DNA of 64,000 bases from positions 297,372 through 361,371 of the forward strand of contig CAZELA010000001.1 in assembly GCA_964512835.1 (NCBI GenBank), given 5' to 3'. Positions 10,024 through 44,799 of the stretch are shown here, piece by piece. The notes beneath the pieces were generated by a model. It saw only the letters and a program-made list of their open reading frames with translations, was not told the DNA's origin and did not search any database. Each line of letters opens with the position of its first letter. Within the stretch, counting starts at the first letter, position 1. This DNA is from an uncultured Candidatus Saccharibacteria bacterium (GTDB lineage: Bacteria > Patescibacteriota > Minisyncoccia > Phycocordibacterales > UBA2100). The position numbers and the translations under genes were made by a program.

Positions 10024-11172
10024 CTATTCCGCCGGCGCGAGATATGCGTCGGGGAGCGGGAACTCGGACGCGGTGGCGAAATTGTCCTCGAGCTTATCGA
10101 CGCCGATCATTTGCGCCTGCGTATCAACGACTGTCGGCCATTGATTCGGAAGCGTGAGCAGCGCGCCGCGCATTTCGTTAATGGCGTAGACCGTCGCACC
10201 GGCGACACCGAGCGAAAAAAAGCCCGATGCCACAAGCAGCGGCAAGACCGCAACCAGCACGAACTGCCAGCCCTGCTGATTCATACTTTTCCATCCGAGC
10301 AATTTCAGGTTCGGACGAAACGTACGCAGATACGTCGACTGCCAGGCATTGAGATGTTCGCGGGCGATATCTCGCTGTTTGACGCGCTCCGTGATGGAAA
10401 GACTGTTGAGATCCTTCATGCGCGCTTCGTTGGCTTCGATGTCGCTGCGGAAATGCGCCCGTAGCGTGTAGCTCAAGTCGAGCAATCCGGGGAGCGGGCG
10501 TCCGAGCTTGTACGCAAAGACTCCTTCGAGCGTGCTCCATAGAACAACAAAGTACAGCAGCCATCCCGGCAGATACCGAGAGAGCCACGGTGACAGATCG
10601 GCGCTGAGCGAATACGTCATGTGGCCGAAGAGTGCGAGGATCGCGACGGAGCGACACAGCGGCACGAACAGATGCACAAGATTGTGTGCAATCAGAAACG
10701 GCCGGTCGACGATGATCTGACTGAGCCCGTCCGGTGCGTCACCGTTGAATGTGCGCTTATAGTCCATGATCCACGAATCACTGAACCATGTGCTGGATAC
10801 TTTGGCCCAGAACACGATGTAGTAGTTCTTGATCAGCTCGCTCTTGGGTTCGATCACGAACAGCAGAACGTAGAGTCCGACGAACGGCAACACAAAAGCC
10901 GATACTTGTTCGTAGCTCCCGCCTTTTTGGACGAGATCGCCGACAACGCGGCCGAGCGTTGCGAGGTAGTACGCTGCAACGGCGTTCACGACGGCGATGA
11001 CGCCGAGGGCAATAGCGCCGCCCCACGCGATGAGTCGTACGTGCCGTGAACCGAAGAAAAACGATCGGAACGTTGCGGACCTGAAGAAGGGTCTCGCGGC
11101 ACGGTCTCCCGAACGGAGATCTTGTGTCATCGTGTCCTCCCACTGGTTTGATACTTGGTACAGGTGAGTCAA
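10024..11172 (-). CDS. polytopic membrane protein, transporter-like (ABC TMD or SbmA/BacA-like fold suspected)
   Basis: About 6 TM helices, no ATPase domain. Start uncertain (MTHLYQ or internal MTQDL). Confidence 0.35.
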   Translation of the reverse strand: MTHLYQVSNQWEDTMTQDLRSGDRAARPFFRSATFRSFFFGSRHVRLIAWGGAIALGVIAVVNAVAAYYLATLGRVVGDLVQKGGSYEQVSAFVLPFVGLYVLLFVIEPKSELIKNYYIVFWAKVSSTWFSDSWIMDYKRTFNGDAPDGLSQIIVDRPFLIAHNLVHLFVPLCRSVAILALFGHMTYSLSADLSPWLSRYLPGWLLYFVVLWSTLEGVFAYKLGRPLPGLLDLSYTLRAHFRSDIEANEARMKDLNSLSITERVKQRDIAREHLNAWQSTYLRTFRPNLKLLGWKSMNQQGWQFVLVAVLPLLVASGFFSLGVAGATVYAINEMRGALLTLPNQWPTVVDTQAQMIGVDKLEDNFATASEFPLPDAYLAPAE

Positions 11173-11387
11173 AGACCGAAGAAAGTCAGAAGACTTTGAC
11201 TCAGTCCATTAGAGCACGCACGAGGGGAAGTGCGGTCTATACACGGGGGACAAAATGTCCTCTGAATATCCTTATTTGACACGAATATGTTTGAATGGTA
11301 CCGTATTTTCGGTTTCCCGCGCTCAGCATTTGAACTGCAATCGAGATCCATCGCGTCGCTCTGCATGCGTCATGCATGTGATCAACG

Positions 11388-11741
11388 ATGGTGGTGAAAA
11401 TGTTTTTGAACGATTGGGAAAACATCGATGAAATGAAGAATGACTTCGAGATATCGGACGTCGAGCTTGCTGGTGTCCGTATTCTCCTCGCTTCCTATAC
11501 CTGCGAGAATTACGATGGCTCTGCCTTCGTATTGTTTGAGCGGGATGGGAAGTTGTACGAGGTCAACGGCAACCACTGTTCTTGCTACGGTTTAGAAGGA
11601 CAATGGGAGCCGGAAGAGACGACGGTTGAGTCGTTGAGACATCGCCTGGAAAAGGGATGGCTCGGCTGGGCTTGGGACGGCACGGCTAACACCTTTGCCG
11701 ACGAGTTTGCAAACGTACTCAATACGATCGAACGTCGGTAG
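11388..11741 (+). CDS. hypothetical protein
   Basis: 117-aa ORF followed by a clear terminator. No family recognised. Confidence 0.45.
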   Translation: MVVKMFLNDWENIDEMKNDFEISDVELAGVRILLASYTCENYDGSAFVLFERDGKLYEVNGNHCSCYGLEGQWEPEETTVESLRHRLEKGWLGWAWDGTANTFADEFANVLNTIERR

Positions 11742-11750
11742 GTTGACTGA

Positions 11751-11781
11751 GCGGAGGGCCCGGCCCTCCGCTTCTTTTTTT
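11751..11781 (+). terminator. rho-independent terminator
   Basis: GCGGAGGGCC-CGGCCCTCCGC hairpin then TTCTTTTTTT. Confidence 0.75.
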
Positions 11782-11851
11782 GCCCGCGTTTCGCGGAATC
11801 GGGGACACCTGTTATCTTTATGCCAATTGGGGAATCGGAGTACTCAATCAA

Positions 11852-11922
11852 TGGGGGATCGTCTAATGGTAGGACTTCAGGTTTTGGTCCTGAATATCAT
11901 GGTTCGAGTCCATGTCCCCCAG
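11852..11922 (+). tRNA. tRNA-Gln (anticodon UUG)
   Basis: Manual cloverleaf: acceptor TGGGGGA/TCCCCCA (7 Watson-Crick pairs, U1-A72, discriminator G73 as in bacterial tRNA-Gln), D-arm GTCT-AATGGTA-GGAC, anticodon arm TCAGG-TTTTGGT-CCTGA (U33, anticodon TTG), 4-nt variable loop, T-arm CATGG-TTCGAGT-CCATG. CCA not encoded. Confidence 0.9.
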
Positions 11923-11964
11923 CAAAAAATTGAGCACCGCGAATATTTTTTGCGGGGGACATGG
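11910..11964. repeat. 20-bp inverted repeat forming a hairpin through the tRNA-Gln 3' end
   Basis: CCATGTCCCCCAGCAAAAAAT (tRNA T-stem 3' side plus acceptor 3' side plus trailer) pairs with ATTTTTTGCGGGGGACATGG 14 nt downstream, with one bulged A. Confidence 0.8.
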
Positions 11965-11978
11965 AGAGGAAAGGGGTC

Positions 11979-12033
11979 GGGAAAACACCTGTTTTCCCGT
12001 GGAGGAAGGTTTGGGAAAACCGTGGGTTTCCCA
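11979..12033. repeat. pair of similar short hairpins GGGAAAAC-N-GTTTTCCC
   Basis: GGGAAAACAcctgTTTTCCC at 11979-11998 and GGGAAAACCgtgGGTTTCCC at 12014-12033. Confidence 0.6.
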
Positions 12034-12034
12034 G

Positions 12035-12068
12035 AGGTCCTAGTCCCCCAGGTCATGGACTCGAAGCC
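12035..12068. repeat. rearranged copies of tRNA-Gln 3'-end segments
   Basis: GGTCCTAG-TCCCCCAG-GTCATGGACTCGAA holds a direct copy of the tRNA 3' end (TCCCCCAG) and an inverted copy of the T-loop and stem (CATGGACTCGAA is the reverse complement of TTCGAGTCCATG). Confidence 0.6.
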
Positions 12069-12203
12069 CGGAGCGATATGAGGCCAGTAGGCCGAATCGC
12101 GAGGGCCGGGTAGCGAGCCGAGGAGCACGATGGTGCGACGAGAGCGGAGCGCGAGCCATGTTTCCCAGCTCGTCATTTTTCGTTTTCGTGTTAGTTTTCG
12201 GGA

Positions 12204-12557
12204 ATGGAAAACAAAAAAGGCGGCTGCCATTGCGGTAAGGTGCGTTACGAAGCGGAACTTGATCTCTCGAAGCCAGTTATAGAGTGTAATTGCTCAATCT
12301 GTGCCGGTAAGGGCATGTTGTTGACATTCATTCCCGAAAATCATCTCACTATTGTTTCTGGAGAAGACATGCTCACCGAGTATCGATTCAATACAGACAA
12401 AATTGCCCACCTTTTTTGCAAAGTATGCGGCATGCAGTCGTTTGCGAAAGCCACCGATCGGGAAGGGAATCCCACGTACGCGGTCAATGTGCGCACAATT
12501 GACGGTATAGATCTTGATGCTTTGAATCGCATGCCTTTCGACGGAAAGTCTCGCTAG
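12204..12557 (+). CDS. GFA (glutathione-dependent formaldehyde-activating, Mss4-like) family protein
   Basis: GGCHCGKVRYE and ECNCSIC zinc-binding cysteine motifs. Confidence 0.8.
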   Translation: MENKKGGCHCGKVRYEAELDLSKPVIECNCSICAGKGMLLTFIPENHLTIVSGEDMLTEYRFNTDKIAHLFCKVCGMQSFAKATDREGNPTYAVNVRTIDGIDLDALNRMPFDGKSR

Positions 12558-12571
12558 TACCGAATCGATCG

Positions 12572-12892
12572 ATGTACCCTATGGCAAAAATGATCGCAAT
12601 TTATAAAACCCCAAAAGATATTGATGCGTTTGAAGATCACTATTTTAATGTGCATATTCCGCTCGCAAACCAGCTCCCAGGGCTCATAAAATATGAAATA
12701 AATGACGGAGCAATCTTGTCTACCACCGGACACAACGATGTGTTTCGCGTGGCTACGCTCTATTTTGAGACCATGGAAGCGTTGAAGGCTGCCTTTGCGT
12801 CAGATATAGGAATGCAGTGCGCCGCAGACCGAAAAATCTTGGCGGATAATGAACACGTACAGATATACCTGTTTGATACCAAGGAGGCCTAG
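12572..12892 (+). CDS. EthD / Dabb-like alpha-beta barrel family protein
   Basis: MIAIYKTPKDIDAFEDHYFNVHIPLA pattern typical of EthD-like stress proteins. Confidence 0.55.
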   Translation: MYPMAKMIAIYKTPKDIDAFEDHYFNVHIPLANQLPGLIKYEINDGAILSTTGHNDVFRVATLYFETMEALKAAFASDIGMQCAADRKILADNEHVQIYLFDTKEA

Positions 12893-34856: not shown

Positions 34857-35747
34857 ATGAACATAGACAAACGTCAGCTTCGGATGACGATTCTGAAGAG
34901 CTGGGGCTTTACGCTCATGGGCTTCTTCAACATCTTTGTCCTGTTGCTGATCGCCTCACTGCTTGCGCTGCGCTTCGGCGGCCCGGTCGCGATCTTCGCG
35001 ATTCTGACCCCCGCACTCGCGATGATGTGCCTCTTCTTTCTCCTCGGAGAAGTGGTGGTGAACCTCATCTTCGATGCGCAGACGCCGCATCCCGAACACG
35101 ACGCACGGTTTCTCGCGTCGATGAAGCGTGTGAAGAAAAAGACCGGCATGTGGGTTATGCCGCGTGCATGGATTATCCCGATGGACCAGCCGAATGCGAT
35201 GGCATACGGGCCCGGAATTCCCGGCATGTGTGCCGTCGGCATTTCAAGGAAGCTCGTCGACATGCTGAATGACGACGAGCTCGACGGCGTTCTCGGACAC
35301 GAATTCGTCCACATTCTGTGCCGCGATACCGGCCTGCTTGCGATCATCAGTCTTGCGCTCGGTCTCATCGACAAACTGCGCGGACTGCTGAGCAACAAGA
35401 ACGCGATGATCACACAGTCTCCGATCACGCTCGTGATCGGCTGGATCATCTACTTCGCCGGCAAGTTGGCGTTTGCCGTGTCGCGGTTCTCGATTTCGCA
35501 GGAACGCGAGATCGCGGCGGACGCGTTGAGTGCGTACTACAACGACGACGCGAAACCCATGATTTCCGCACTGCGGAAACTCAACGTGTGGGTTCTGAGG
35601 AACAGGAAGGAAGACGGCGAGAAGCCGTTCTTCCAGGACCTCATGGTTGCCCATCCCGGAATGGACGAGCGGATCGCTTCACTCGAAGCGCTCATTCATC
35701 ACGAGACGTTACTGATCACTAACCAGGCAGAGGAGGAGCACGCGTGA
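34857..35747 (+). CDS. htpX: M48 family zinc metalloprotease
   Basis: HEFVH zinc motif, NAMAYGPG motif, four TM segments. Confidence 0.8.
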   Translation: MNIDKRQLRMTILKSWGFTLMGFFNIFVLLLIASLLALRFGGPVAIFAILTPALAMMCLFFLLGEVVVNLIFDAQTPHPEHDARFLASMKRVKKKTGMWVMPRAWIIPMDQPNAMAYGPGIPGMCAVGISRKLVDMLNDDELDGVLGHEFVHILCRDTGLLAIISLALGLIDKLRGLLSNKNAMITQSPITLVIGWIIYFAGKLAFAVSRFSISQEREIAADALSAYYNDDAKPMISALRKLNVWVLRNRKEDGEKPFFQDLMVAHPGMDERIASLEALIHHETLLITNQAEEEHA

Positions 35748-37396
35748 ATCAGATACCCAGAAATATCCGCGCAACCGGAAACGGCGGCGGGGGAAAAGCG
35801 GCTGTGCCGGACGAACGTCCGCACGGCACAGGCGGATTCTGGTGGAAGTTCAACGTGATCGTGCTTGCGATCACGTTCGGGTTCTTCTACTGGATCTTTC
35901 CGCACCTCACGCAGAATGTCGTGTTCGACATGATTCTGCGCAACGGCTGGTATTTCATTCCCGGCTTCTTTCTTGCACTTGCGGCGCTCCGGTTCGGAAC
36001 CCGTAACCGCGAAGATCTGATGTCGGGTGAGCTCGGCAAACACCGGCGACCGATTTCGGTGCTGGTTACAGCCGGTACCGCATTTGTGTTGTGGTGCGCG
36101 TTCGTGTGGACCTCGACCGACTACCTGATCTACAAAACGTACGGGTCGTCGTTTACGGCACGCGCCGGGCTCATCCCGTCGTCGCCGGAGTTCACGCGCT
36201 TCACCCCCAAGGCGAACGCCTGCAACGATATCGGTAACTCGATCTCGACCAGCGGCGAACATGTCGACTGCAGCTACGCTGCACCGATGGTGACGTCGAA
36301 AGGGTTCTCGTGGGTCGCGCCGATCGTGCCGCGCGGTCTGTGGAACACGCTGTTCGTGAACAACCCCGGCTTCCTCGTCCTCGACGATTCGGCCGGTTCG
36401 TACGCGAATCCCTCGAAGCGTCTCGTGCGCATCGACGACGAACAGAAAGTCGGACCGGGTATGGAATGGTTCGATAATCTACAGTACAAGCTCGCGCACA
36501 ACGACTTCTTCGCGAACTACGACACGCCGCACTACCTGCCGCTCGATGATTCGAAGCCCGACAAGCTCTCGCTCGTCGTGCCGAAGATCAAGTATTTTCT
36601 CTGGCGCCTGCCCTACTGGGGCGGCGTCGTGATCGTGCACTCCGACGGCAGACTCGAGGATCTCGACGCGGAAAAGGCGGTTGCGGATCCGCGGCTGAAG
36701 GGCAAGTGGATTTATCCGCTCGCGCTCAGCCGGCTCTACATCTCGATCCAGAACTACGGATTGGGATGGGGGCTGCTTACGCCGTTCGTCACGATTCAGG
36801 GCAACCTGGAAATCGAACAGCTCTCGAGCGGTAATCAGTTTCCGTTCCTCACGCAGGGCGCGGATAACAAGCCGTATCTCGTGACTGCGACGCGTGGTCA
36901 GGGAAGTGCTCGCGGACTCTACCGCATGTACTTCACCGATGCGTCTACCGGCGTGACCACGTTCCATCAGTTCGGCCAGCACGAAGTGGTCTACGGTGCG
37001 GGTGCGGCCAAAGCGCGGCTCACCAACATCCAGGGCTATCAGTGGCATCACGAGGGCGAAAAGGGTGGAACGGGAACGATCATCGCGATCGAACCCGTCT
37101 ACGTCGTCCGTCCGAACGATCCCACGCTGTACTGGAAGTTCACGATCACCAACGTGACCTATTCCGGTATTTCGGCGACGGCGGTTGCGAACTCCGCTCA
37201 GCCGGACGACATCAAGGTCTTTCCGCACAGGCAGGACTACGAGTCGTGGCTGAAGGGGAACAATGTTTCTCCGGCATCGGCTACCGCGGTTTCCGCCGCG
37301 GGCGCGTCTGTCCGCGACGAAGTCCTCTCGAAGATTGAAGGCATGACGCGCGAGCTCAACTCGCTCCGCGGTCTCGTGCAATCGCTCCCGAAGTAG
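35744..37396 (+). CDS. large membrane-anchored hypothetical protein (550 aa), translationally coupled to htpX
   Basis: GTG 35744 overlaps the htpX TGA. Three N-terminal TM helices, then about 400-aa domain with no recognised motifs. Confidence 0.5.
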   Translation: MNQIPRNIRATGNGGGGKAAVPDERPHGTGGFWWKFNVIVLAITFGFFYWIFPHLTQNVVFDMILRNGWYFIPGFFLALAALRFGTRNREDLMSGELGKHRRPISVLVTAGTAFVLWCAFVWTSTDYLIYKTYGSSFTARAGLIPSSPEFTRFTPKANACNDIGNSISTSGEHVDCSYAAPMVTSKGFSWVAPIVPRGLWNTLFVNNPGFLVLDDSAGSYANPSKRLVRIDDEQKVGPGMEWFDNLQYKLAHNDFFANYDTPHYLPLDDSKPDKLSLVVPKIKYFLWRLPYWGGVVIVHSDGRLEDLDAEKAVADPRLKGKWIYPLALSRLYISIQNYGLGWGLLTPFVTIQGNLEIEQLSSGNQFPFLTQGADNKPYLVTATRGQGSARGLYRMYFTDASTGVTTFHQFGQHEVVYGAGAAKARLTNIQGYQWHHEGEKGGTGTIIAIEPVYVVRPNDPTLYWKFTITNVTYSGISATAVANSAQPDDIKVFPHRQDYESWLKGNNVSPASATAVSAAGASVRDEVLSKIEGMTRELNSLRGLVQSLPK

Positions 37397-37524
37397 GATC
37401 AGTCCTCAAACAATAGTTCTCAAGAATCGACGCCGCGGCCCCGTGCCGCGGCGTTTTCTTTTTGGTTGACCGGACTGAGTAGTTGGAGCATATTCAAAAT
37501 AGGTTCAACAGGAGGAATTGTTCG

Positions 37525-38478
37525 ATGACAGCCATTCATAAGCACGACCGCTATCGCGGCGCGATGGTCGGATTGCTCGGTGGTGACGAAATCGGGGGTC
37601 CGTACGAGACGTGGGGTGCTGCGGAAATCGCTGCAGACATTGATCGTCGCGGCGGCCTCACCATGTTCGACTATGTGAGTCCGTGGGCAAAGCTGCTTGA
37701 AGGCTCCACGAAGGTGCTGCCGAAGGGGCGCCCGACGGATGATTCCGATCACGCTGCAGCGCTCGGATTGAGCCTCGTCGAGCATCGTCGGGTCGTCCCC
37801 GAAGACATCTATGCTCGGCTTCGTCGGATTACATTCGAGCACGTGAGTCCGCTGTGGAACGGTGTCGCAAAGAATGCCGGCCACACGACACGAACAATGC
37901 TTCGTCCGGCAACGCTTGCAGAATCGCAAGCGCTTACCGTCGAAACATATCCGAGCAACGGTTCGCTCATGCGTGCGGCTGCGCTCTCGCTTTTCTACGG
38001 CTCCTTCGAAGCTGCGGATCACGTAGTCATCGATTCGGTAACGCGCATCACGCACCGGCATGAGGTTGTCGAAGATTGCACCGGCGCGTTTGTCGCGACA
38101 CTGTGCAATCTGCTCGAAGGTCATGATCCCGAATATTCGATCAAATCGCATATCGGATTCTCGCTCTCTGATCATGTGAGCATGCACTGCGATAGGGTCA
38201 CACCGAAAGACCCCGGCACGTGGCCGGCTCGTGGAGCGGCAACGTTCACGCTGCATGTTGCATATTGGTCTTTGATGCACGCAACCAGTTATGCCGACGG
38301 TATCGAAAAGGCGATTCGTGTCGGAGGTGATTCGGAAACCTATGCAGCGGTTGCGGGGGCACTTTTGGGTGCTCGGTTCGGCATTCACGACATCCCTGGT
38401 GCATGGCGCAAAGACATGATGGGTGTCGACGTGATGCTCGGCATTGCCGACGACCTGTACGAGATCGCTCACCGCTGA
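37525..38478 (+). CDS. ADP-ribosylglycohydrolase family protein
   Basis: RYRGAMVGLLGGDEIGGPYE N-terminal motif, NGSLMRAAAL, GGDSETYAAVAGALLGARFG. AGGAGGAA RBS before ATG 37525. Confidence 0.8.
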   Translation: MTAIHKHDRYRGAMVGLLGGDEIGGPYETWGAAEIAADIDRRGGLTMFDYVSPWAKLLEGSTKVLPKGRPTDDSDHAAALGLSLVEHRRVVPEDIYARLRRITFEHVSPLWNGVAKNAGHTTRTMLRPATLAESQALTVETYPSNGSLMRAAALSLFYGSFEAADHVVIDSVTRITHRHEVVEDCTGAFVATLCNLLEGHDPEYSIKSHIGFSLSDHVSMHCDRVTPKDPGTWPARGAATFTLHVAYWSLMHATSYADGIEKAIRVGGDSETYAAVAGALLGARFGIHDIPGAWRKDMMGVDVMLGIADDLYEIAHR

Positions 38479-38493
38479 GGTGGGTACTAAAAA

Positions 38494-38530
38494 ACGGCCG
38501 CCTTTCGAGGCGGCCGTGCTTTTATATAAT
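38494..38530. terminator. bidirectional terminator between the ADP-ribosylglycohydrolase and NrtR genes
   Basis: ACGGCCGCC-tttcga-GGCGGCCGT hairpin with AAAAAA upstream and TTTTATATAATTT downstream. Confidence 0.75.
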
Positions 38531-39220
38531 TTCAATCTCTTTGACCTTGTCGCTCGCAAACCGATACAGCTGCGCGGGCCGGAAGCGTCCGCCGGTTCGC
38601 TTGCGCGGCAGTTCTTTGAGAATATCGAGCTTCAGGATTTTTTTACGGAAATTGCGCTTATCAAGTTCGTGACCGAGCGTAGCCTCGTACATTTGTTCGA
38701 GCTCCGTCAGCGTGAACTCTTTCGGCATGAGCTTACCGATCAGTGTTGTGTAGGTCATGCGCGAATGTAGGCGAGTGAGTGCTACAGACAGCATGTCGGT
38801 GTGATCGTATGCAAGCGTGACTTTCTTGCCGGCGGGGGCCCACCAGCAATCATCTGTGTCGGACTGTTCCGTGTGCGAGAGCGAGCTCCACGGAACATAC
38901 GCGATGTAGCCCACGGCGACCACGCGCCCGCGCGGATCGCGATCGACTTGGCTGAATGTATAGAGCTGTTCCATGTACACCTTGTCGGGATCGACACATG
39001 CTTTTGCAGAGAGGTGACGGCGCGCGGCGTCTTCTGCGGTTTCTTTCGGATCAATAAGGCCGCCGGGGAATCCCTGTGAGTTTGCGAAGTAGGGTGGTCG
39101 ATTCACGGCAACGAGTCGCATATGAAGCTGACCGTCCTTGACGGTAAACAGCGTGACGTCGGTTGCGAGCACCGCAAAGCGCAGATGCTCCGGAGAGGGA
39201 ACGAATGTTCCGTTGGACAT
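38522..39220 (-). CDS. nrtR: NrtR-family Nudix-related transcriptional regulator
   Basis: Degenerate Nudix domain with EQLYTFSQVDRDPRGRVVAVGYIA signature. C-terminal winged helix EFTLTELEQMYEATLGHELDKRNFRKKIL. Confidence 0.75.
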   Translation of the reverse strand: MSNGTFVPSPEHLRFAVLATDVTLFTVKDGQLHMRLVAVNRPPYFANSQGFPGGLIDPKETAEDAARRHLSAKACVDPDKVYMEQLYTFSQVDRDPRGRVVAVGYIAYVPWSSLSHTEQSDTDDCWWAPAGKKVTLAYDHTDMLSVALTRLHSRMTYTTLIGKLMPKEFTLTELEQMYEATLGHELDKRNFRKKILKLDILKELPRKRTGGRFRPAQLYRFASDKVKEIEII

Positions 39221-39287
39221 AGATACACTGTACAGAACAAATAGTTATTGTCAAATATACACTTATCAACAGGTTATTTAGTGTAGT

Positions 39288-39447
39288 ATTGACACTATGT
39301 GAAACCGGGAATACTGTGCGAAGTAGGAGTAGGACATTTGTTCTCTGACATAGTGCGTACATATATTGACAGTGTCAGTTCAAAATGTGACAGTTTCGCC
39401 GGTTTGCTACTTCGTTAGCACATGGTCTTTGACAGTGTGCTAGTGAA
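39288..39447. promoter_or_regulatory. three direct repeats T(A/T)TTGACA(C/G)T(A/G)TG in the nrtR-operon intergenic region (candidate operators or promoters)
   Basis: tattgacactatgtg 39288, tattgacagtgtcag 39364 (with TGTCA-N10-TGACA inverted repeat), tttgacagtgtgcta 39434. Confidence 0.45.
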
Positions 39448-39492: not shown

Positions 39493-40686
39493 ATGACGAC
39501 CGAATCCAATGCCGCACCCGCGGTTGTGCCGCAGGCGTGGATCGACTACATCGGCCCGTTCGTTTCCGTGATCGGCAAGCCGATCGAGGACGTGAATACG
39601 GCGCTCAGCTCCATCGTCGGCGACCCCGGCGACCAGGCGATCGCGCTCCTCAAGGACGCGAACCTGACCCCGGACGCCGCGATCAAGAGTGCGTTCCAGG
39701 GTATGCCGCTCGGCATTCTGAATCTCGCGATCACCAAGCTCCGTGCGGCACCTGTTGCCGCCACGCCGGTTTCGTTCGGCGGGCTCGATATTCTGCCCGA
39801 CGTGCCGACCGAGCAATCGTGGCTCTCGGCGCTCCGCGCAGGCGGGGCACTGAAGGTCAGTCAGGCGACGGTCACCTCTGCGATTCGTGCGACGCTCGCT
39901 CACCGCGCCGGTCTCTACGACCTGCCGGCGATCCTGGTCGAACGCATCGAGAAGTTCGCCGATGACAACGCCGAGCAAGTCGGCACCGACTTCTTCGCGC
40001 TGCGCAAGCAGTTGCGCAAGAAGGAGTACGCCGAAGTGTTCGAGGCGATCGGCATCGACGGTCTCGACGGCAACTACGTCACCGACAAGCGCAAGAATGA
40101 TCTGTTCGTCCGCATCGACGGCGACCTGTGGCCTGCCATCGTGTCCTTCCAGGGCACGCTGAAGGGCTGGGTCGACTCGTGGCAGACGCAGTCCAACAAT
40201 CCCGGACTGATGATGCAGAACATGATGGCGATCATGTCGGGCGGCGTCGGCGCCGTTCCGCAGGCATTCATGATGCAGGCGCCGGATACCGGCGTGCTGC
40301 ACGATGCGGCCGACGGCTTCAACGACGTGATCAACAAGGTCTTCGCCGGCACCCGCATGCCGATCGCCAGTGCGCTCGCGCACGAAGCGACGCAGATCGT
40401 GAAGACGCTCGAGAATCCGGCACTGCCCGGATATATCGGTGCGGCCAATCGCGATCAGATGCTGCGTATGCTCGGCGTCGAAGTTGCGGCAACGTATCCG
40501 CGCATGGAGGTCAATCTGATCAAGTACGTGATGAGCGTGCTCAAGATCAAGGACCTCTCGGCCGGACCGGAAGAGCAGCAGTTCTTCGTCGCGCTCTCGA
40601 TGCTGGGCAATTCGATCCCGTGGGATCAGCTCGGCCTCGGCAAGCGCAATCGTCCCGACACTGAGCGGCGCCCTCGCGCGCTGTAA
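39493..40686 (+). CDS. hypothetical protein (397 aa), first gene of operon
   Basis: Ala/Gly-rich, no recognised motifs. Confidence 0.5.
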   Translation: MTTESNAAPAVVPQAWIDYIGPFVSVIGKPIEDVNTALSSIVGDPGDQAIALLKDANLTPDAAIKSAFQGMPLGILNLAITKLRAAPVAATPVSFGGLDILPDVPTEQSWLSALRAGGALKVSQATVTSAIRATLAHRAGLYDLPAILVERIEKFADDNAEQVGTDFFALRKQLRKKEYAEVFEAIGIDGLDGNYVTDKRKNDLFVRIDGDLWPAIVSFQGTLKGWVDSWQTQSNNPGLMMQNMMAIMSGGVGAVPQAFMMQAPDTGVLHDAADGFNDVINKVFAGTRMPIASALAHEATQIVKTLENPALPGYIGAANRDQMLRMLGVEVAATYPRMEVNLIKYVMSVLKIKDLSAGPEEQQFFVALSMLGNSIPWDQLGLGKRNRPDTERRPRAL

Positions 40687-40755
40687 CAGAACGGACATCA
40701 ATGGGAGGCGGCACCGTTCGGTGCCGCCTCGAATTCTTTGAAAAGGATTGCACCG

Positions 40756-41868
40756 ATGATGGATGCAGATCTTCTGCCCGTCTACGAACGCATCATGCAG
40801 GCCGCACGGCCTGAGGATGTGTTCGAAGAATTGTCGGTCGTGCTTCCGCCGCGTCTCATGGAAAAGCATTTACAACCCGAAATGGATGCGATGCGTACCG
40901 TGCTTGATGCGGACCGCTACTCGTCACTCGATGACAAGGAGGCGGCACGACTCGCCAAGCCGAAGCTCGAAGAGTTCTATCGGATGGCGCTCGAGCGCGC
41001 GGCCAAAGGCCTCTACGCGCCCGAGGACTACACGCCCTACGTTCCGACCGGCAACGGTCGGACGATCATCGTCGACGGCACGACATATACGGTCGGTGAA
41101 AAGTTCCACGTGGGAGAGCATTCCGCTCTCTACAAGGGACGCATGGCGATCGATCAGGGAAGCGCAGGGGTCATCATCCGGATCGCGAATGATCCGGATA
41201 CCAATCCCTACGTTCTCAACGAGATCGGCATGCTCGATCAATTGCATCGTGTCGACGTCGGATACTGGCGTCACATTCCGTTCATGCTCGGCCGCTTTTC
41301 CGCGGGCGATCGTATCGGTCTTGTGACGCGCTACTTCTCCGGGCATACGCTCACCGAGGTGCGCGCAAACAAACTGCATCGCGATGGTCTCGACCAGCGC
41401 CATGTTGTGTGGGTGCTCGACAGAATGCTCGGGCTTATGTGGTACTACCACGAGCTCGGCATCGTCCACGGTCGGATCGAGCCGGAGAGAATCCGTGTTC
41501 GGCCGTACAACCACAATGCGCTCCTTACCGGCTGGGGACACGCGGTCTTCAAGCCGGCGATCACCGGACAGAAGCTTGCTTCTGTCGGCGGAATATTCGA
41601 AGCCCCGGAAATCGGGGATTCGGGTGCCGTCGGTCCCTGGACCGACATCTATAGTCTCGGCAAAACGCTCATCTGGCTCATCGGCGGCGATCCTGCCACC
41701 AATGAAATGCCCGATCGTGTCGAACCGAAACTGCGACAGTTTCTGGCGAACATGGTGTGGAAGAGCCCCAAGGCTCGACCGCACAATGCCCGTCAGCTCT
41801 ACGACGCTCAAAACAGGTTGAAAGACACCCTGTGGGAGCGGCGATTCGTCCACATGCCCATGGCATAA
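40756..41868 (+). CDS. protein-kinase-fold protein with degenerate catalytic motifs (pseudokinase-like)
   Basis: VGEHSALYKG (Gly-loop-like), VIIRIA (VAIK with K to R), NEIGMLDQL (C-helix Glu), HELGIVHGRIEPERIRV (HRD/HGD loop with D to G/R), GWG for DFG, TDIYSLGKTLIWLIGG (subdomain IX). Confidence 0.6.
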   Translation: MMDADLLPVYERIMQAARPEDVFEELSVVLPPRLMEKHLQPEMDAMRTVLDADRYSSLDDKEAARLAKPKLEEFYRMALERAAKGLYAPEDYTPYVPTGNGRTIIVDGTTYTVGEKFHVGEHSALYKGRMAIDQGSAGVIIRIANDPDTNPYVLNEIGMLDQLHRVDVGYWRHIPFMLGRFSAGDRIGLVTRYFSGHTLTEVRANKLHRDGLDQRHVVWVLDRMLGLMWYYHELGIVHGRIEPERIRVRPYNHNALLTGWGHAVFKPAITGQKLASVGGIFEAPEIGDSGAVGPWTDIYSLGKTLIWLIGGDPATNEMPDRVEPKLRQFLANMVWKSPKARPHNARQLYDAQNRLKDTLWERRFVHMPMA

Positions 41869-41882
41869 CAAGGGAGACTACC

Positions 41883-43322
41883 GTGAAGACATCAAGGATC
41901 AGTTCACGCGCCGACGCAGAGGTTGCACTCACCAATGTGCGCTCCAGCGCGGCCGCGTTCTCGCATAGCGAAGCCATGACGCGCTCCGGCGCCGGACGGT
42001 GTCATCCGAACCTCAACCCGAAGGGTGTGGTTCGCGAGTGTCTCGATACGAGGCAGATGCCGTTCGTCACGCCGATCGCGATCGGCATGGATATCACGAA
42101 GTCGCGCGGCAACGATGCGCGAATCGTGTACGAACAGACGATGCCGCTTTTGGGCTCGTTGTTCATGTCGGGCGCCGTCACCGATCCGCAGATTCTGTTT
42201 GCGGGTATCGGCGACGCGACCGTCGACACGGCGCCGCTCCAGGTGGGGCAGTTCGAGTCCGATGACCGCATGGACAAGGATCTCGAGCGTATGTGGCTCG
42301 AGGGCGGCGGCGGCGGAACAGGCCAGGAGTCGTACGAGCTGTTTGCGTATCTGCTCGCTCGCAAGACCAAGATCGACGCGATCGACAAGCGCGGCAAGAA
42401 GGGCTATTGCTTCTTCACCGCCGACGAAGCGCCGTATCCGAGCGTGAAGAAGGCCGAAGTCGAGACCGTCTTCGGTGACAAGCTGAAGAAGGACATCCCG
42501 ACGCCGGATATTTTCGCGGAGTTACAGAAGAAGTTCCGCACCTTCCTGATCTATCCGGGTAAGCCGATGGCGGAACGTCAGGATGACATCGATGCCGAGA
42601 TTCGTCAGCGCTTGCTGAAGGCCGGCGGCCGGTTCGAGAACTGCTCGATCCGGGCGACGCTGATCTGGAACAATTTCAATGACCTGGATCTGCATGTCGT
42701 GACGCCGGATCGCGATCACATCTATTACGGCAATCGCACCTCCAGGTGCGGCGGCGCGCTCGATGTGGATCGCAACGCGACCGGTCGCGAGACCCGCGAG
42801 CCCGTGGAGAATATCCGCTGGCCCAAGGGGACCGCGAAGCCGGGCAAGTATCGTGTCTACGTCCAGAACTTCGCCGAGCACGAACGCAACGGCAAGGATA
42901 CGCCGTTCAAGGTCGAGCTCGATCTCGACGGCACGATCAAGACCTTCGAGGGTGTCATGAAGGCCGGCACCACCAAGGGGCCGAGCGACACGATCGCGTT
43001 CGAGTTCGACTACGTGCCGAAAGGCATGCAGCAGGCGAACGCGCAGGGTCGCGAGGCCTACGCCGACGAGACCATCCTCGGCGAGTGGCGCACGTGCATT
43101 CCGGACGGCCACATCATCCGGCTGACGGATGCGAAGTGGACGACCGAAGCCATGATCGGCGTCATGGGTATCCAGAGCGGAAAGAAGACACTCAGGCAGG
43201 TCCTCGCGGACATGCATGAACGTGCCGTCGATCCGAAGGGTATCAAGGACGTCGAGCTCGCGCTCAAGCCGTTCGCCGCGCAGGCGGTGATCGACGAGGT
43301 CGGCGAAGAAGCATTCACTTGA
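41883..43322 (+). CDS. von Willebrand factor A (MIDAS) domain protein with C-terminal beta-rich domain
   Basis: GTG 41883 after AAGGGAGA. IAIGMDITKS (DxTxS MIDAS), GGGGGTGQESYELFA (Thr motif), YCFFTADEAPY (Asp motif). Confidence 0.55.
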   Translation: MKTSRISSRADAEVALTNVRSSAAAFSHSEAMTRSGAGRCHPNLNPKGVVRECLDTRQMPFVTPIAIGMDITKSRGNDARIVYEQTMPLLGSLFMSGAVTDPQILFAGIGDATVDTAPLQVGQFESDDRMDKDLERMWLEGGGGGTGQESYELFAYLLARKTKIDAIDKRGKKGYCFFTADEAPYPSVKKAEVETVFGDKLKKDIPTPDIFAELQKKFRTFLIYPGKPMAERQDDIDAEIRQRLLKAGGRFENCSIRATLIWNNFNDLDLHVVTPDRDHIYYGNRTSRCGGALDVDRNATGRETREPVENIRWPKGTAKPGKYRVYVQNFAEHERNGKDTPFKVELDLDGTIKTFEGVMKAGTTKGPSDTIAFEFDYVPKGMQQANAQGREAYADETILGEWRTCIPDGHIIRLTDAKWTTEAMIGVMGIQSGKKTLRQVLADMHERAVDPKGIKDVELALKPFAAQAVIDEVGEEAFT

Positions 43323-43405
43323 CACGCAGTCAGTACCATCGCACATTACGGGAGCGCCTTTCGGGGCGCTCCTTTGCTTTTGATCTTTTACACAGGGGAA
43401 TAGCA

Positions 43406-44749
43406 ATGAAAAAACACGCGACAATCGTCGTTGATCTCGGGTTCGGCGATGCGGGCAAAGGCACCATCGTTGATTACGTCGCGCGACGCGGCGGCTACGC
43501 CTCGGTCGTTCGATTCAACGGAGGCGGTCAGGCTGCACACAATGTGGTCCTACCCGACGGCCGACACCATACGTTCCGTCAGTTCGGAAGTGCCACGTTC
43601 GTTCCGGGAATTCGGACGCATCTCTCGCGCTTCATGCTCGTGGATCCGTTCGAACTCATTCACGAAGCGAATCTCCTGGTGGACGCCGGCGTTCGTGATC
43701 CGCTTGCGCGGCACTCGATCGACGAGCATGCGCTCGTCGTTGCTCCTCATAGCAAGAATGCCAATCGCGTGCGCGAAGCCCGTCGTGGAAACGGCAGGCA
43801 CGGCACGTGTGCAATGGGTATCGGCGAGACGATGGACATGTCGATCAAACATCCGGACATGGCCATCCGTGCGCGCGACCTGCTCGATCTGAGCGTAGTC
43901 ACACGCAAGTTGAATCGCATCGCGGAGTATGTTGCGGCCGAGTTCAAGGACGATTCGCTCTACAAGGAGCTGGAGAATACGCCGGCTGCGAGCCGCACGG
44001 GTGCGTGGTTCGCAGATGCGCCGCCGAGCGAGTGGGCAGGAATGCTTCACGAGATCGGAAAACGCATCACGATCGTCGACGACAAACATCTGTGGCGCAT
44101 CGCGCGCAGCGGAAACTTGCTGTTCGAAGGTTCGCAGGGAGTTTTGCTCGACGAATGGCGCGGATTTCATCCGTATACCACGTGGTCGACAACGACTGCA
44201 GAGAATGCTCGAACCTTGCTTCAGGAAGCAGGCTACGAGTATTCAACGGAGACGATCGGCGTCCTGCGCGCGTTTCATACGCGTCATGGCGAAGGTCCGT
44301 TCCCGACGGAAAATGCGACGCTCACGAAACTGCTACCCGATAGTCACAACGACAACATCGGTCCGCAGGGAGTGTTTCGTGTCGGCTGGTTTGATGCGGT
44401 GCTCGCACAGTACGCGCTTGATGTATGCGGCGGCGTTGATTCGCTTGCGATCACACATCTCGATCGCTTCGACGCACTGGCTGATCCGCAGATCTGCCTC
44501 GGATACAAATCTGCAAACGGTGCGTTTGCGCGAATTCCGGTGAATCCGGTCAAGGAAGATCTTGTTGCGCAGGCAGAGATCACGAAGTTGGTCGCGCGTG
44601 CGCAACCGCTGTACCAACCCGCGCGCCTGGTGGGCGATCCCTATGCCAGGATGATCGCAGACATGGTTTCGACACCGGTCTCGATCACATCGTACGGGCC
44701 GACCTCGGCGGACAAGCGAGCCCTCGGGAGGCGCGTTCGCGCAGCGTAA
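43406..44749 (+). CDS. adenylosuccinate synthetase (PurA) family protein, divergent paralog
   Basis: P-loop GDAGKGT (GDEGKGK), NGGGQAAHNV (GGHNAGHT), EGSQGVLLD (EGAQGTLLD), HTRHGEGPFPTE (STRVGAGPFPTE), VGWFD (TGWLD), ITHLDRFD (LTKLDVLD). Several PurA substrate motifs altered. Confidence 0.75.
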   Translation: MKKHATIVVDLGFGDAGKGTIVDYVARRGGYASVVRFNGGGQAAHNVVLPDGRHHTFRQFGSATFVPGIRTHLSRFMLVDPFELIHEANLLVDAGVRDPLARHSIDEHALVVAPHSKNANRVREARRGNGRHGTCAMGIGETMDMSIKHPDMAIRARDLLDLSVVTRKLNRIAEYVAAEFKDDSLYKELENTPAASRTGAWFADAPPSEWAGMLHEIGKRITIVDDKHLWRIARSGNLLFEGSQGVLLDEWRGFHPYTTWSTTTAENARTLLQEAGYEYSTETIGVLRAFHTRHGEGPFPTENATLTKLLPDSHNDNIGPQGVFRVGWFDAVLAQYALDVCGGVDSLAITHLDRFDALADPQICLGYKSANGAFARIPVNPVKEDLVAQAEITKLVARAQPLYQPARLVGDPYARMIADMVSTPVSITSYGPTSADKRALGRRVRAA

Positions 44750-44763
44750 GTTCTTTGAGACTC

Positions 44764-44799
44764 AGCCTTCGGCCCACGCCGAAGGCTGTTCTTTTTTTG
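44764..44799 (+). terminator. rho-independent terminator of the operon
   Basis: CAGCCTTCGG-cccacg-CCGAAGGCTG then TTCTTTTTTT. Confidence 0.8.

Follow-up and report, generated by a model that had tools for sequence, protein, structure and literature searches.

What can a relative of adenylosuccinate synthetase (PurA) be doing in an operon with a von Willebrand factor A (vWA) protein, a protein of kinase fold and a helical protein of no recognisable family, all opposite a divergent NrtR-type regulator? The question is raised by a four-gene unit, g1–g4, in a stretch of 64,000 nucleotides (the window) from contig CAZELA010000001.1 of an uncultured Candidatus Saccharibacteria bacterium. Coordinates are positions in this 64-kb window, and gene starts were picked by ribosome-binding sites. 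The unit consists of four open reading frames (ORFs) on the forward strand, spanning 39493–44749:

39493–40686, forward strand: g1, 397 amino acids (aa), an all-alpha protein
40756–41868, forward strand: g2, 370 aa, a putative pseudokinase with an AAGGA ribosome-binding site (an alternative TTG start lies at 40738)
41883–43322, forward strand: g3, 479 aa, a vWA/TerD-like protein with a GTG start after AGGGAG
43406–44749, forward strand: g4, 447 aa, a PurA-family protein

The g1–g2, g2–g3 and g3–g4 spacers measure 69, 14 and 83 bp, close to the 15–84 bp given in the original prediction, a note made from the sequence alone. Our answer, which we hold at roughly even balance, is that the unit is an accessory module of NAD+/ADP-ribose metabolism or conflict that belongs to an NrtR regulon and performs a new PurA-type chemistry.

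The four genes belong together. Scanning one genome per GTDB species with a g1 profile gave 59 loci (loci of the comparison set carry labels in the style of L001; L006, a 108-kb piece of a metagenome-assembled genome, is the window's own source contig), and in more than 50 of them the four families cluster together, in candidate phyla radiation (CPR) bacteria and in other phyla, with the PurA-like gene inside the cluster and usually adjoining g1. The unit g1–g4 is thus co-inherited and widely conserved. The ORF calls and this co-occurrence in independent loci uphold the packed same-strand arrangement read from the window, and the neighbourhood search that the original prediction had called for found the opposite of scattered homologs. 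Two gene orders prevail:

Type A (the window): g1, kinase, vWA (+TerD-like), PurA
Type B (most CPR bacteria): kinase-like (~270 aa), vWA-like (~370 aa), PurA-like, g1, followed by a convergent protein of ~600 aa

Type A is carried by Paceibacteria-type CPR bacteria and by metagenome-assembled genomes labelled Melainabacteria, Obscuribacter (on a 7-Mb contig), Bdellovibrionales and others; L067 also has this order. A Schekmanbacteria locus reads kinase–vWA–x–PurA–g1, and a Kofleriaceae locus has the g2–g3–g4 triad without g1. In L040 (7677–10547; a genome labelled Bdellovibrionales) the vWA/TerD-like and PurA-like proteins share one ORF of 956 aa, possibly a natural fusion or the result of a lost stop codon; a true fusion would predict that g3 and g4 touch each other directly. 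Components within type B are 40–55% identical; between the types, g1 is ~57% identical over its conserved domain and the triad proteins 25–32%. Profile hidden Markov models tie the type A, type B and phage versions together, divergent as they are, at E values of 1e-13 to 1e-19, and the pairwise distances of the five type B families are correlated (r 0.64–0.84). The fifth of these families, here called P600, has about 600–650 aa and converges on g1 in 45 loci (for example L001, 9324–11264, reverse strand); it carries a GSRLKGYG...SDIDV (GS...DxD) motif of Pol-beta nucleotidyltransferases, is weakly MntA-like, has a conserved C-terminal helical domain, and is absent from the window and from phages. 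In L039, a type B locus, a second kinase-like and vWA-like pair follows g1, a local duplication.

Large phages carry the module as well, a side of it that was missing from the original picture. The g2–g3–g4 triad occurs without g1 in ~200 Bixzunavirus mycobacteriophages, where the separate genes are annotated as a Ser/Thr kinase, a hypothetical protein and a 'PurA-like adenylosuccinate synthetase'; the window's g3 and g4 are 45% and 40% identical to these proteins, closer than to the type B CPR versions. IMG/VR added 42 loci in phages of 72–512 kb, of which 39 have the vWA-like gene next to the PurA-like one and 27 include a kinase-like gene, and one Rhizobium phage has the vWA–PurA pair. Among the conserved neighbour families of the 59 cellular and 42 viral loci there is no polymerase, glycosylase or other DNA-modification partner, no AAA+ protein and no PP2C.

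The control region gives the unit a putative metabolic setting. Its features are the following:

38522–39220, reverse strand: gene of an NrtR-like regulator, divergent from the operon (NUDIX 35 bits, NrtR_WHD 86.9 bits)
39279–39297, strand not assigned: predicted NrtR operator TAGTGTAGTATTGACACTA, an exact TAGTGT-N7-ACACTA palindrome
39246–39264, strand not assigned: degenerate NrtR box with two mismatches to TAGTGT-N7-ACACTA, over the −35 element of the nrtR promoter

The regulator has the domain make-up of the NrtR family, an N-terminal Nudix and a C-terminal NrtR winged-helix domain; its Nudix box is degenerate (GLIDPKETAEDAARRHLSAK), and it scores 141.7 bits against the NCBIfam model of ADP-ribose-responsive repressors, whose cut-off is 400. 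The operators of the family are palindromes of ~21 bp with a GT-N7-AC core (PMC2330246), and the window box has this form. It overlaps a TTGACA −35-like hexamer (39289–39294) that faces the operon; on the other side a promoter-like site for nrtR, TTGACA-16-TACAGT, runs on the reverse strand from 39254 to 39227, and the degenerate box there is kept in L007, L008, L010 and L011. Of 56 loci, 18 have a box with at most one mismatch upstream of the cluster; the rate in control windows is 1%. In many loci of either gene order the core AGTGT-N7-ACACT immediately precedes the first gene of the cluster, even where no NrtR gene is adjacent. An NrtR-like gene is next to the cluster in 16 of the cellular loci and in 12 of the 42 viral ones. 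The divergent regulator, already noticed in the window, is therefore linked to the operon well beyond it.

Genes of NAD+ salvage recur in the same neighbourhoods. Phage loci L092–L098 read PncB–NadE–PncA–NrtR–kinase–vWA–PurA, and the phage loci L082, L083 and L088 read NrtR–NAMPT–vWA–PurA–kinase–NMNAT. In the Rhizobium phage a phosphoribosyltransferase and an NMNAT/Nudix gene are nearby; CPR loci have NAMPT, a Nudix protein, NadE, PncA or an ADP-ribosylglycohydrolase close by, and L067 has an NAPRTase. Judged by these sequence signals, the unit carries NrtR-type operators and turns up again and again among NAD+ salvage genes, in cells and phages alike. A nucleotide or ADP-ribose-linked function, as the original prediction put it, can accordingly be narrowed to NAD+/ADP-ribose metabolism or conflict by the recurring NAMPT, NMNAT, PncA, PncB and NadE genes. 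Just downstream of the cassette of NAD-salvage genes and triad, L092 has a Cas12f1-like/TnpB-type gene (11049–12611, reverse strand).

The chemistry of the module would reside in g4. This protein matches Pfam Adenylsucc_synt with 219 bits, aligns with PurA end to end and finds Escherichia coli PurA (1cg4/1ade) at E ~1e-31, with 27.5% identity by tblastn; in PHROGs it matches phrog_1211 with 257 bits. It stays below the PurA equivalog cut-offs (TIGR00184, 155.7 against 395.55 bits; NF002223, 182.6 against 402) and scores 33.7 bits against the PurZ model NF038379, whose cut-off is 300; its phage relatives reach 41.8 and 52.7 bits with that model. Residues were mapped on an E. coli PurA reference whose numbering was checked against the PDB alignment. 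By this mapping g4 keeps D13, K16, H41, Q224, T239, D333 and S414 together with the GDxGKG P-loop (GDAGKG), and changes N38Q, T129C, R143D, V273H and K331H. The R303–R305 aspartate site is lost, with small, aromatic or hydrophobic residues instead. The loss is family-wide, and what marks a PurA is missing there: Arg303, Arg305 and Thr300/Thr301 become G/V, F/V/L and P/W/Y/Q. The contacts to the 5'-phosphate of inosine monophosphate (IMP) are likewise replaced across the family (N38Q, T129C/I/V, R143D/E/N/G), with only T239 kept. The set D13, K16, Q38, H41, T239, H273 and D333 is shared by the window's g4, the viral sequences (all 37) and almost every homolog from cells; Q224 is a histidine in the type B homologs, and position 239 is S or T. 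The single outlier in the alignment is probably the canonical purA of L061. The original description, a PurA-family enzyme with altered substrate motifs, thus holds at the level of residues, with the GTP and phosphotransfer residues kept. Because the aspartate site and part of the IMP-phosphate site are lost, g4 is predicted to be a GTP-dependent enzyme of the PurA family that is neither an adenylosuccinate synthetase nor PurZ.

Its partner g2 scores 30.3 bits against Pfam Pkinase, under the cut-off of 31.7, and matches phrog_3043 'kinase' at E 1.7e-16. A PknB reference sequence served solely to locate the kinase motifs. In the alignment the lysine of VAIK is R, HRD is HGR, the catalytic-loop N is R and DFG is GWG, in keeping with the substitutions first read by eye, and the catalytic Asp is not conserved across the g2 family. 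All the hallmarks of an active eukaryotic-type kinase (beta3 Lys, HRD Asp, Asn, DFG Asp and a score at the Pfam gathering level) are missing, and by its motifs g2 is classed as a pseudokinase. Its N-terminal helical region aligns with a J-domain of the phage homologs, with DAD in place of HPD; the J-domain signature YRxLAxxxHPD is present in 15 of 24 phage kinase-like homologs, and that of L075 matches Pfam DnaJ at E 7e-4.

For g3 there is no Pfam match, and neither single-sequence nor profile searches of the PDB return a vWA protein; PHROGs gives phrog_2971 (E 7.6e-51) and phrog_1735 (E 2.1e-31). The AlphaFold model (pLDDT 82.9) divides into three parts:

g3 residues ~60–225: vWA-fold domain
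g3 residues ~254–377: TerD/YfaP-like beta-sandwich
g3 residues ~395–467: C-terminal helical domain

With Foldseek the N-terminal domain resembles the vWA domains of integrin beta (I-like), SpaC, Sec23/24 and factor B (E ~1e-6, probability 1.0), and the middle domain resembles TerD (probability 0.99); some homologs are named YfaP/DUF2135 by JGI. The model thus assigns a vWA fold to g3. Invariant in both gene orders and in phages are D70, T72, S74, D111, D115, E125, E140, G143, G144 and D181; D70, T72 and S74 make up a DxTxS that reads as a conserved motif of the metal-ion-dependent adhesion site (MIDAS) type, D181 is its invariant companion, and GGGGT follows E140. The vWA domain and its MIDAS-like motifs had been recognised from the sequence; the TerD/YfaP-like beta-sandwich and the helical tail had been missed. 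Type B vWA proteins end in short conserved motifs such as ...WL. Matches of g3 to Salmonella, Klebsiella and Caulobacter phages were set aside, as they cover the TerD/YfaP-like middle domain only (235–396) and are unrelated to the triad.

The cellular module adds g1, which remains without a family: neither Pfam, NCBIfam, PHROGs and PADLOC nor the PDB holds a match, as the original prediction had supposed. AlphaFold (pLDDT 85.6) builds it from helices alone: an Ala/Pro linker joins a helical N-terminal domain to a second helical domain of ~290 residues, which is highly conserved. Inside the conserved domain lies a flexible Met/Gly-rich loop, and the C-terminal tail is conserved; in type B homologs the N-terminal domain is SAM-like (SAM/HhH-like). 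Among 1.84 billion proteins the family amounts to 328 clusters at 50% identity, a small set of uniform length (~400 aa throughout), and the closest relatives are labelled CPR/Patescibacteria. No g1 was found in phage genomes or viral contigs. On the model, g1 is a predicted new fold, and it is confined to cells. The idea that g1 is a phage structural protein, and the locus a prophage, was rejected, given the absence of g1 from viral collections and the housekeeping genes in the window's flanks.

The remaining signals and neighbours of the operon in the window are:

39390–39447, forward strand: 5' leader segment with a hairpin (TAGCACA...TGTGCTA; inverted repeats I2 and I3) ahead of g1
40705–40730, forward strand: terminator-like hairpin in the g1/g2 gap, 11-bp stem, 9 GC pairs, weak T tail
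43350–43373, forward strand: terminator-like hairpin in the g3/g4 gap, 10-bp stem, tail TTGCTTTTGA
44763–44798, forward strand: strong intrinsic terminator, 11-bp stem (44763–44788), 8 GC pairs, tail TTCTTTTTTT
37483–38478, forward strand: ADP-ribosylglycohydrolase gene (Pfam ADP_ribosyl_GH, 140 bits)

The strong terminator at the end of the operon, noted before, is real; two internal terminator-like hairpins had escaped notice. Because such hairpins follow g1 and g3, the unit is probably internally attenuated and not one plain transcript, and the hairpin behind g1 is a possible attenuator. This suggests a graded expression, with g1 highest and g4 possibly on a separate transcript. The leader, between the NrtR box and the g1 start, has a consensus (CGCCGG.T.GCTACTT.G.TAGCAC) that is kept upstream of g1 in the type A loci L007, L008, L010 and L011. 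Rfam offers no match for this segment, which may act as an attenuator or as a small regulatory RNA element.

The flanks of the module in the window are housekeeping genes. The ADP-ribosylglycohydrolase, named as a neighbour in the original prediction, is genuine in the window, but of about 59 cellular loci only 5 (L006, L008, L034, L038 and L047) have a homolog or analogue close to the cluster. As a core component it was rejected on these grounds and counts as a peripheral neighbour; in L008 it is preceded by NrtR boxes. Between the convergent ADP-ribosylglycohydrolase and NrtR-like genes of the window stands a perfect bidirectional terminator hairpin (38494–38517). Just upstream of the former, at 34857–37396, are an M48-family peptidase gene and a 550-aa ORF without a family match, whose start the peptidase gene overlaps by 4 bp; this pair is absent from every fetched locus except the source contig. 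One tRNA gene (11852–11922) is the sole Rfam match at gathering level in the window.

How might such a module work? By analogy with characterised NrtR proteins it is probably induced by ADP-ribose: NAD+ breakdown would raise ADP-ribose, NrtR would leave its operator, and the operon would be expressed. With GTP, g4 would then place a phosphate on an oxygen of some nucleotide-like substrate, not the IMP/aspartate pair, and couple the product to a nucleophile other than aspartate, its aromatic or hydrophobic pocket taking the place of the arginines. The vWA/MIDAS protein and the pseudokinase may serve as substrate- or client-holding and regulatory subunits; in phages the J-domain of the pseudokinase would recruit Hsp70, and g1 would be a cellular partner or client. 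The net role would be to restore or protect the NAD+/ADP-ribose economy, as a new step of salvage or reconstitution or in the handling of ADP-ribose-modified molecules, and in phages to counter NAD+-depleting immunity. A more specific version has the PurA paralog, in complex with the vWA protein and the pseudokinase, run a novel GTP-driven NAD+/ADP-ribose reaction, to which CPR bacteria add g1 and with which phages oppose NAD+-depleting immunity; we regard it as tentative and put it well below an even chance. The reaction might rebuild or re-amidate a pyridine nucleotide by a fourth route, in which, for example, ADP-ribose or a nicotinate nucleotide would be O-phosphorylated and coupled to nicotinamide or ammonia; alternatively, GTP might be used to remove a nucleotide from a client protein or to ligate one to it.

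Several observations weigh against an NAD+/ADP-ribose module. About 60% of the cellular loci have no NrtR gene, recognisable box or NAD genes within 9 kb, and the Bixzunavirus triad adjoins no NAD genes: in L005 (Mycobacterium phage Colt, 3857–4378) a polynucleotide kinase gene and the end of the genome are close to it. Known NAD+ salvage is complete without g4, and no missing step is obvious, because L092 has NadE and L082 has both NAMPT and NMNAT. Metabolic enzymes are seldom accompanied by a vWA protein and a pseudokinase, a pair more in keeping with protein-directed or conflict systems. In the window a consensus promoter scan found no forward-strand sigma-70 promoter for the operon, and the taxon labels of metagenome-assembled genomes are unreliable.

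A rival reading is a self-contained anti-phage or abortive-infection system, in which the vWA protein and the pseudokinase would sense infection and the PurA-like enzyme would make a signal or poison nucleotide or drain GTP. The effectors would be g1 and, in type B, the MntA-like nucleotidyltransferase, with the phage copies acting as decoys, counter-measures or superinfection-exclusion devices. The patchy spread across phyla (CPR, Melainabacteria/Obscuribacter, Bdellovibrionales, Schekmanbacteria and Myxococcota), the variable flanks with integrases near some loci, the small size of the family (328 clusters) and a make-up that recalls vWA/kinase conflict modules are in its favour, as are the GS...DxD motif and weak MntA similarity of P600 and a repressor that holds the operon off by default, which is typical of such systems. 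We nevertheless consider it rather unlikely: PADLOC gives generic kinase matches only, no effector domain (nuclease, TIR, SIR2 or pore) is recognisable, the components are well conserved (40–55% identity in type B, 57% for g1 between the orders) and not fast-evolving, the neighbours in the window are housekeeping genes, and phage triads sit inside NAD+ salvage operons. The vWA fold and MIDAS-type motif of g3 are also what one would expect of a chaperone or assembly machine like MoxR–vWA, whose PurA-like member would be a GTP switch, whose vWA protein would grip a client peptide (g1) and whose J-domain would bring Hsp70, with no new small molecule made. The J-domain HPD in many phage kinase-like proteins, the Met-rich flexible loop and conserved C-terminal tail of g1, the ...WL-type termini of type B vWA proteins and the role of vWA proteins as peptide-binding co-chaperones (PMC7159879, PMC9503650) agree with this reading, which we judge improbable all the same. 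D13 and H41, the base and acid of PurA, are strictly kept, base contacts are kept or conservatively changed (Q224H in type B, S or T at 239), and Q38 and H273 are new and invariant; because of this retention and these new residues, g4 would perform real chemistry on a bound substrate and not act as a bare GTPase. The absence of g1 from phages also speaks against such a machine.

The loss of the contacts to a free 5'-phosphate (R143 and T129) is one point in favour of a modification of DNA or RNA bases, in which the PurA-like enzyme would make an N6-substituted purine from a 6-oxopurine in a polynucleotide and the SAM/HhH-like domain of g1 would bind nucleic acid. Large phages often hypermodify their own DNA, PurZ is a phage PurA paralog that changes genome chemistry, and g1 homologs do have SAM/HhH-like N-termini. 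This reading is very improbable: the cluster has no conserved polymerase, glycosylase or other DNA-modification partner, a genome-modification pathway would not be expected under NrtR control or amid NAD-salvage genes, and the score with the PurZ model is far under its cut-off. A further proposal, that g4 is simply the adenylosuccinate synthetase of the organism and its neighbours are unrelated, was named in the original prediction as one that would undo the case for a linked system. CPR bacteria rely on salvage, the Pfam Adenylsucc_synt match is strong, and g4 is the sole PurA-family gene in the 64-kb window. The scores far under the purA equivalog cut-offs, the family-wide loss of the aspartate-binding arginines and IMP-phosphate contacts and the near-invariant linkage to the partner genes across phyla and phages reduce its chances almost to nothing. 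In L061, a Saccharibacteria contig, a canonical purA (10483–11814; GDEGKG, GGANAGH and an intact arginine cluster) even coexists with the cluster copy, 8 kb downstream of it. To judge from these sequences, an ordinary purA is already contradicted.

The accessory module of NAD+/ADP-ribose metabolism or conflict is of interest on several counts. Bacterial immunity uses the depletion of NAD+ as a central weapon, and the rebuilding of NAD+ by phages is a very active field; a three-protein unit inside phage NAD+ salvage operons and under NrtR-type control is a candidate for a new step or layer in this conflict. The re-purposing of PurA in phages was previously known as PurZ only. Paralogs of the g4 type would be a second and larger radiation, with the GTP chemistry kept and the substrate pockets exchanged, which promises a new reaction. 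For the salvage-dependent CPR/Patescibacteria, the module supplies a strongly conserved protein of putatively new fold, g1, that can be approached through defined partners.

How does the module compare with known systems? In the papers and defence catalogues searched it is undescribed, within an incomplete coverage of the literature; PADLOC-DB 2.0 gives generic kinase-domain matches for g2 only and none for g1, g3, g4, the type B proteins or the phage triad. The view that no described system combines a PurA paralog with a vWA protein and a pseudokinase thus agrees with the literature and PADLOC searches. With PurA and PurZ, g4 shares a full-length alignment, the P-loop, D13, H41, the base-contacting Q224/T239 and the guanine-specifying D333, and phages carry this paralog of PurA just as they carry PurZ. 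It differs from both in scores below the equivalog cut-offs, in the replaced aspartate site (R303–R305, T300 and T301), in the new invariant His273 and in its linkage, always to a vWA protein and usually to a pseudokinase.

TerY-P triads (vWA, Ser/Thr kinase and PP2C), whose kinase–PP2C–vWA theme is described in PMC7159879, resemble the module in having a standalone vWA protein and a kinase-fold protein in a mobile cluster, and g3 has a TerD-like beta-sandwich. In most module members, however, the kinase is dead, a PurA-like enzyme, g1 and an NrtR regulator stand instead, and no PP2C family is among the conserved neighbours of the 59 cellular and 42 viral loci. The partial likeness drawn in the original prediction, less the phosphatase and with a nucleotide-ligase-type PurA paralog, agrees with these observations. 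The MoxR–vWA ternary systems (Kaur et al. 2020, PMC7159879) also combine a vWA protein, an NTPase and a third conserved protein in fixed order and with co-evolution; in the module no MoxR AAA+ ATPase is conserved, the partner is a GTP enzyme of PurA fold with its catalytic residues intact, and the vWA protein has no variable effector domain attached to it.

With NrtR regulons (Rodionov et al. 2008, PMC2330246) the module shares the Nudix and winged-helix regulator, the GT-N7-AC palindrome and, in related loci, the neighbours nadV/NAMPT, nadE, pncA, pncB and an NMNAT–Nudix protein. What sets it apart is that g1–g4 belong to no known kind of NAD+ enzyme and that the regulator falls short of the NCBIfam equivalog cut-off; neither 'purA' nor 'adenylosuccinate' occurs in the text of PMC2330246. 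The NAD+ reconstitution pathways NARP1, NARP2 and NARP3 are, like the triad, phage-borne and tied to NAD+ breakdown products, and in L082, L083 and L088 the triad lies between the NARP2-type genes NAMPT and NMNAT. None of g1–g4 is Adps, Namat, Nampt, Nmnat, PnuC or NadR, and the NARP3 paper (PMC13464706) mentions no PurA-like or vWA component.

Anti-ADP-ribosylation systems centred on ADP-ribosylglycohydrolase (ARG; Iyer et al. 2022, PMC9503650, section 3.8) have a Nudix-HTH repressor and a vWA 'peptide-binding chaperone', and an ADP-ribosylglycohydrolase neighbours the module in the window and four other loci. They differ in that ARG is missing from most module loci, the module has no coupled phosphatase, and their description lacks a PurA-like enzyme, a pseudokinase and g1. 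An ARG-centred system with Nudix regulators and vWA chaperones (PMC9503650) is nevertheless the nearest published idea, and beside it the module would be of a new kind, built from known folds and one predicted new fold.

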